In this document: positions 40,028 to 40,327 of the stretch, piece by piece
How positions within the stretch are numbered: position 1 is the stretch's first letter
Layout of the letters: each line of letters starts with the position of its first letter
Assembly (NCBI RefSeq): GCF_045037415.1
Contig: NZ_CP173438.1
Reading direction: 5' to 3' (one strand)
Origin: Escherichia coli
Lineage (GTDB): Bacteria; Pseudomonadota; Gammaproteobacteria; Enterobacterales; Enterobacteriaceae
Length of the DNA stretch: 64,000 nt
Made by a program: the position numbers and the translations under genes
The notes under the pieces: generated by a model
Database searches by the model: none
Told to the model about the DNA's origin: nothing
The model's input: the letters and a program-made list of their open reading frames with translations, nothing else

Positions 40028-40327
40028 TCATTTATGCCTGGGCGACAACTGCTTCACAAGCATCGCCGCAATCCCAATCCCGTGCTGCTGCGCCAGGGTG
40101 TTACACAACTCATCGTCATAAAACCCCTGCATCATGCGCACCGAATCGCTGTTAAACGGGTTATCTTTCGAATCAAACAACTCGTTGGTTTTACGCATCT
40201 CTTTCAGCATGTTGCGTAAAAAAATCGCCTCAAACTGCTCCGCGGCCTGCTTAATATCATTGGCCTGAACCTTCGGCCCCATTAACGCATCGCTGCCGTC
40301 AATCCCGCCGCTGGCGTTCACTTTCAT
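40028..40327 (-). CDS. lfgJ: FlgJ-like rod assembly protein, rod-binding domain only
   Basis: 99 aa; ..AAEQFEAIFLRNMLKEMRKT.. matches FlgJ N-terminal domain; no muramidase domain. Confidence 0.7.
   Translation of the reverse strand: MKVNASGGIDGSDALMGPKVQANDIKQAAEQFEAIFLRNMLKEMRKTNELFDSKDNPFNSDSVRMMQGFYDDELCNTLAQQHGIGIAAMLVKQLSPRHK

Follow-up and report, generated by a model that had tools for sequence, protein, structure and literature searches.

The lateral-type flagellar locus around lfgJ

The window, a stretch of 64,000 nucleotides of the Escherichia coli chromosome, carries a lateral-type flagellar (Flag-2) locus from ~25.5 kb to its end, and the 2.5 kb around lfgJ are 100% identical to several strains, e.g., SA186 (NZ_CP022730.1). 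The minus-strand genes run in the order lafU, lafT, lafS, lafF-B, and lafA, and then, after lafZ on the plus strand, lafW, lfgL, K, J, I, H, G, F, E, D, C, and B. Beyond lfgB lie lfgA, M, and N, a variable region, lfiJ-E, lafK, and lfiM; the rest of Flag-2, lfiN-R and lfhBA, is located in SA186 just past the point where the window ends. The locus is identified as Flag-2 by the lfgNMABCDEFGHIJKL gene order, by lafWZ and lafA-U, and by its site between dinB/yafP and rayT/yafL, and it agrees with the published Flag-2 layout (PMC6993521). lfgJ is the final gene of the lfgB-J block, and all Flag-2 genes neighbouring it within the window are intact. The features considered here are as follows.

36524..37501, minus strand: lafW, Flag-2-specific, 325 aa, without a Pfam or NCBIfam family
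38462..39838, minus strand: lfgK, hook-filament junction protein 1 (PF22638 FlgK_D1, E 1.3e-64), the next gene past the REP spacer
39839..40027, no strand: lfgJ-lfgK spacer, 189 nt, two inverted REP elements (BIME), no coding remnant
40028..40327, minus strand: lfgJ, 99 aa, single-domain FlgJ with PF10135 only, probable Flag-2 rod cap or scaffold
40327..41442, minus strand: lfgI, P-ring (PF02119, E 9.5e-134)
41442..42107, minus strand: lfgH, L-ring (RefSeq annotation of the identical locus; 36% identical to Flag-1 FlgH)
42190..42975, minus strand: lfgG, distal rod (RefSeq; 48% identical to Flag-1 FlgG)
43054..43791, minus strand: lfgF, proximal rod (RefSeq; 41% identical to FlgF)
45978..46777, minus strand: lfgC and lfgB, proximal rod (RefSeq; 44% and 39% identical to FlgC and FlgB)

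lfgJ occupies 300 nt and is read from 40327 to 40028 on the minus strand; RefSeq labels the same 300 nt as a “rod-binding protein” (WP_000867181.1). Its ATG overlaps the lfgI stop codon in the junction cTGATG, and a GGAGGTGA ribosome-binding site precedes the ATG. The overlap indicates that the two genes are translationally coupled.

PF10135 (Rod-binding) was the sole Pfam family detected in LfgJ, matching residues 42–93 (E 4e-14; 53.3 bits versus a gathering score of 25.1) across profile positions 1–51 of 51. With a match above the gathering score, no GH73, SLT, or M23 lytic domain in itself or in the adjoining DNA, and a gene between flgI and flgK, LfgJ has the features tested for a single-domain PF10135 protein. 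The two-domain FlgJ model TIGR02541 (NCBIfam) scored 67.6 bits versus a cut-off of 193 and covered only positions 20–91 of 294, and LfgJ contains neither a GH73 glucosaminidase domain (PF01832) nor its catalytic glutamates. A previous sequence-only reading had taken the 99-aa product for a rod-binding domain lacking the muramidase, and the domain searches bear this out. LfgJ aligns to E. coli Flag-1 FlgJ (313 aa) with 34% identity over 77 residues, corresponding to FlgJ residues 30–102. In an AF2 model of LfgJ, residues 1–19 are disordered (pLDDT <50), and helices span residues 20–50, 61–80, and 86–94; the N-terminus is polar and has no signal peptide. A profile search of PDB sequences returned no solved structure containing the rod-binding domain.

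lfgJ thus already carries an annotation, its Flag-2 locus is known, and its product belongs to the single-domain FlgJ class, which has long been recognised. LfgJ naturally lacks the wall-cutting half of the main flagellar FlgJ, which is usual for this flagellar type. As to database names, NCBIfam families NF009349-NF009352 describe rod-binding-only short FlgJ proteins (97–140 profile positions) under the name “peptidoglycan hydrolase,” and the UniRef name of the C. rodentium orthologue (P0023) starts “Lateral flagellar pe...,” presumably for the same term. Such names are misleading, because these are short rod-binding proteins with no hydrolase domain.

The window also holds a thrW island (~3177–13650, beside tRNA-Thr(CGU) at 14011–14086) with an integrase fragment, an AbiEi/AbiEii toxin-antitoxin pair (4118–5828), and a type I restriction-modification system (hsdR, 6070–9189; hsdM, 9183–10820; hsdS-like, 11841–12602). 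SA186 carries other, phage-like content at the thrW site.

Lytic genes and the opening of the wall

No peptidoglycan-lytic gene was found in the whole Flag-2 locus by RefSeq annotation or by Pfam and NCBIfam scans of unnamed ORFs, and E. coli Flag-2 has no lytic transglycosylase gene inside the flagellar cluster of the kind represented by SltF. We therefore infer that any wall opening for Flag-2 is supplied from outside the locus.

Several candidates for a concealed or adjacent lysin were considered and rejected. LafW is the only conserved Flag-2-specific protein that belongs to no family, and its AF2 model (pLDDT 70) is flagellin-like, with the flagellin 4nx9 as its top Foldseek PDB match (E 2.4e-7) and weaker matches to HAP3. 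lafW follows lfgL directly in every enterobacterial flag-2 locus inspected, and the modelled termini of its product are disordered; sources name LafW a “hook-associated protein,” and a fourth axial protein of junction or flagellin type is a possible identity for it. Three orphan ORFs in variable region 1 (133, 182, and 115 aa) belong to no family and, by eye, have no hydrophobic N-terminal signal peptide. They lie in a cargo stretch (51913–54810) of 35% GC, compared to ~57% GC for the flagellar genes, beside genes for a FliB-like lysine methylase (48456–49427), an 812-aa glycosyltransferase (49474–51912), and a cytidylyltransferase. Next to Flag-2 but not part of it are yafL (C40 peptidase), dpaA, and ivy, which belong to the K-12 core and were not considered flagellum-associated.

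We propose, with a probability of roughly three in four, that lfgJ encodes a naturally single-domain FlgJ that serves as the Flag-2 rod cap or scaffold, and that an enzyme from elsewhere in the genome cuts the wall for it in trans. For E. coli LfgJ we infer this account from homology, operon position, and selection, with mechanistic steps modelled on Salmonella FlgJ and other single-domain FlgJ proteins. The disordered N-terminus, having no signal peptide, would route LfgJ through the Flag-2 type III export gate. LfgJ would then be seated on the growing LfgB/C/F/G rod, with LfgG as its presumed substrate, and would be displaced once the L-ring forms. An enzyme encoded outside the Flag-2 locus would open the wall in trans; the likeliest cutter would be a Sec-exported housekeeping lytic transglycosylase present at, or recruited to, the rod tip, in the manner of SltF in Rhodobacter and BB0259 in Borrelia.

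The outside activity might instead be that of the primary system, if the glucosaminidase domain of its FlgJ also cut for Flag-2 rods, in which case Flag-2 could lose, or never acquire, a lysin of its own. All but two of the 5426 complete E. coli genomes (5424) carry a two-domain flgJ, so that nearly every Flag-2 carrier has one, and the rod proteins of the two systems are 39–48% identical, which makes cross-recognition conceivable. However, the N-domains of LfgJ and FlgJ are just 34% identical, FlgJ is thought to work tethered to its own rod tip, and Flag-1 and Flag-2 are under separate regulation. Furthermore, motility without flag-1 is reported for Tatumella ptyseos, Budvicia, and Pragia (PMC6993521), and the flag-2 J of Tatumella is also single-domain (124 aa), in a locus without a lysin. 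Borrowing is therefore probably no general requirement; the short J of motile Tatumella argues against obligatory borrowing, and we regard the primary FlgJ as an unlikely cutter for Flag-2.

It is quite improbable that the Flag-2 rod needs no dedicated cleavage at all and passes through pre-existing or growth-associated gaps in the wall, with LfgJ acting as a cap only. Such passage would fit the lack of a lytic gene in every single-domain flag-2-type locus examined, and Hirano et al. reportedly found in 2001 that the N-terminal half of Salmonella FlgJ alone gives weak motility. Against it, the rod is stated to be wider than the mesh of the wall, which measures <2 nm (PMC8517470), and the single-domain systems that have been tested required or implicated a separate lytic enzyme.

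These considerations temper the second claim of the sequence-only reading, namely that cleavage for rod passage must come from another enzyme. Separate-enzyme cleavage is the standard inference for a single-domain FlgJ (PMC8517470, PMC7277832) and is consistent with a Flag-2 locus that has no lytic gene. “Must” is nevertheless too strong: the gene is the LfgJ of a secondary system, which that reading missed, in a species with a two-domain primary flgJ; Flag-2 expression was undetected in E. coli EC958 (PMC4637896); and the rod might cross without a dedicated lysin.

Conservation of the short form and the spacer behind lfgJ

A search of 5426 complete E. coli genomes recovered lfgJ from 1273, each time as a single copy and with coverage of at least 80%. 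Two of the 1273 copies are on plasmid-typed records, unexpected for a chromosomal locus, perhaps because the replicon was mis-typed or because a plasmid carries a large piece of the chromosome. Close homologues form 104 clusters from Citrobacter, Leclercia, Scandinavium, Buttiauxella, Dryocola, and Pseudescherichia; full-length members are ~95–106 aa, and the others comprise fragments and a small number of longer, probably mis-called ORFs. LfgJ orthologues in other enterobacterial genera range from 95 to 132 aa. Compared to Citrobacter, lfgJ has a pN of 0.094 and a pS of 0.70, giving a dN/dS of 0.05, a value that is approximate as dS is close to saturation; lfgI, lfgG, and lfgK have values of 0.042–0.049. 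The length of lfgJ is thus kept under purifying selection across the Enterobacteriaceae, and the short form is not decayed.

A truncated relic of a two-domain gene, left in a cryptic and decaying locus, is accordingly a very unlikely identity for lfgJ. Both LafA protein and Flag-2-dependent motility were undetected in the ST131 strain EC958 (PMC4637896), so that Flag-2 appears silent there under the conditions tested; the locus is deleted in K-12-like strains, and the orthologous lateral J gene of Plesiomonas encodes two domains. Set against these points are a dN/dS equal to that of the adjacent structural genes, a length that is constant between genera, the intact neighbouring Flag-2 genes in the window, five loci without a GH73 remnant at E<=1, and the five cluster representatives that come closest outside the family (103–132 aa), which are also single-domain. 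Elsewhere, Flag-2 is documented to function in Plesiomonas and to be expressed in Yersinia.

The 189-nt spacer behind lfgJ contains inverted repeats, with sub-threshold matches to the REP-derived Rfam family naRNA4 at 39915–39952 and 39979–40038, and its sequence recurs with a median of 25 copies per E. coli genome. There are stops in all three frames, the lfgK ATG follows directly at 39838, and the spacer RNA has a fold of −72 kcal/mol (z −2.4). With E. coli FlgJ as a tblastn query against the window, residues 30–100 matched lfgJ (E 3e-10), and the best match to the C-terminal domain (E 0.078) was 37 kb off. Three GH73 domains used as queries, from E. coli FlgJ and from the polar and lateral FlgJ of Plesiomonas, gave nothing credible in the window, the best E-values being 0.078 and 0.65, both distant from the locus. 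Extending the tblastn searches to the Citrobacter, Tatumella, and metagenomic loci and to the whole of Flag-2 in SA186 likewise yielded no GH73 remnant at E<=1. There is consequently almost no chance that a split or frameshifted muramidase domain lies directly 3′ of lfgJ, the finding that the sequence-only reading had named as refuting its view: only 189 nt separate lfgJ from lfgK, these are REP elements with stops in each frame, and the searches with all three GH73 domains were negative.

In strains SK1144 and SK0189, the match is interrupted by ~1.4 kb that carry the annotation of an IS3-like IS1397-family transposase. IS1397 targets REP/BIME sequences. A sigma-70 and terminator scan of the lfgJ-lfgK spacer returned nothing informative, and a scan with the sigma-28 consensus gave noise only. 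By eye, the pattern TTAAG/TTAAAG - N16-17 - CGnTTTTA(A/C) is seen upstream of lfgK, lafA, and lfgM, a count of three sites with no statistics attached.

39868–39898, minus strand: pattern site upstream of lfgK, by eye
~35.2 kb, minus strand: pattern site upstream of lafA, by eye
~47.6 kb, plus strand: pattern site upstream of lfgM, by eye

This shared pattern may be a late promoter of the LafS (sigma-28-type) class, and if so, lfgJ would end an lfgB-J operon.

Relatives of LfgJ and comparison with known systems

Searching 1.84 billion cluster representatives with a profile gave 5422 hits. Among the nearest 141 of these, a domain scan found Rod-binding in all 141, accompanied by Glucosaminidase in 52, by SLT in five, and by SLT_2 in one; the rest were single-domain. 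A neighbour-joining tree of the 141 representatives, built on the 78-column rod-binding region, did not resolve and gave no indication of whether domains were lost or gained, and a nearest-neighbour ranking was used in its place. The named single-domain relatives, from Tatumella, Buttiauxella, Photobacterium aphoticum, Colwellia, Dongshaea, and Paraphotobacterium, are all gamma-proteobacterial. The order lfgI, short J, lfgK, lfgL, and a lafW-like gene is common to Tatumella, Photobacterium, Citrobacter, and one metagenome contig, and no SLT or GH73 gene was found within 10 kb on either side in these four loci. In five related loci, Plesiomonas included, the J gene lies between I and K.

Plesiomonas shigelloides is the exception in domain content. 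Its lateral FlgJL (P0413) has 328 aa and contains both Rod-binding and Glucosaminidase domains. Its lateral locus is syntenic and orthologous to E. coli Flag-2, with LfgI 62% and LfgG 58% identical, values exceeding those for its polar set. The lateral flagella of Plesiomonas are functional (PMC4481668). An alternative assignment of its 322-aa P0110 as the lateral FlgJ was rejected, this protein being polar as judged by the cheV-cheR and 639-aa FlgK context and by Table 3 of PMC4481668. The two Plesiomonas J genes are as follows.

L010, 10001–10987: lateral J gene, two-domain
L009, 10001–10969: polar J gene, two-domain

The GH73 domains of the lateral and polar FlgJ are 58% identical, compared to 42% for their N-domains and 27–54% for other lateral/polar paralogue pairs. 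In this small sample, the identities hint that the lateral FlgJ may have acquired its lysin domain secondarily, with a polar-type FlgJ as the donor. The two-domain J of Plesiomonas also shows that a lysin in cis is compatible with this flagellum type and is perhaps advantageous.

By itself, the finding at lfgJ is minor: the gene already has an annotation, and the recognition of single-domain FlgJ proteins dates back to 2006. One might tentatively extend it to lateral and Flag-2-type rods of the gamma-proteobacteria in general, which would be built with a lysin-less cap from lysin-less loci and would depend on a specific partner that LfgJ recruits, be it a housekeeping lytic transglycosylase or the FlgJ of the primary system; we consider this generalisation possible but doubtful. 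If LfgJ does recruit a partner, E. coli, with both FlgJ architectures in one cell, would be a tractable organism in which to find it.

The Flag-1 FlgJ of Salmonella and E. coli (TIGR02541, GH73) has a homologous N-terminal rod-binding domain and a gene likewise placed between I and K, whereas LfgJ has no equivalent of its residues ~105–313, including GH73 and the catalytic glutamates. The lateral or flag-2-type J proteins of Vibrio, Photobacterium, Tatumella, and Buttiauxella are likewise short and rod-binding only, although these have longer low-complexity tails (124–182 aa), while E. coli LfgJ is near the minimal domain. In Vibrio alginolyticus, the lateral flgJ2 encodes 182 aa and the polar flgJ1 encodes 307 aa (PMC10956519). 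In the Fla1 system of Rhodobacter sphaeroides, FlgJ lacks a lytic domain and acts as a rod-binding scaffold, and the wall is cleaved by SltF, a separate Sec-exported SLT enzyme that binds FlgJ (PMC7277832); sltF sits inside the flgG operon, in contrast to E. coli Flag-2 and the other flag-2-type loci inspected, which have no SLT-domain gene. The single-domain FlgJ of Borrelia burgdorferi is bound by BB0259, a Sec-exported SLT enzyme encoded elsewhere (PMC8517470), but the flagella of Borrelia are periplasmic, and it is their hook and filament, not the rod, that require FlgJ. Reviews describe gamma-proteobacterial FlgJ as two-domain, and the general rule that it is dual-domain (PMC8517470) fits the primary systems and mostly fails for the lateral and Flag-2 systems of the same organisms.
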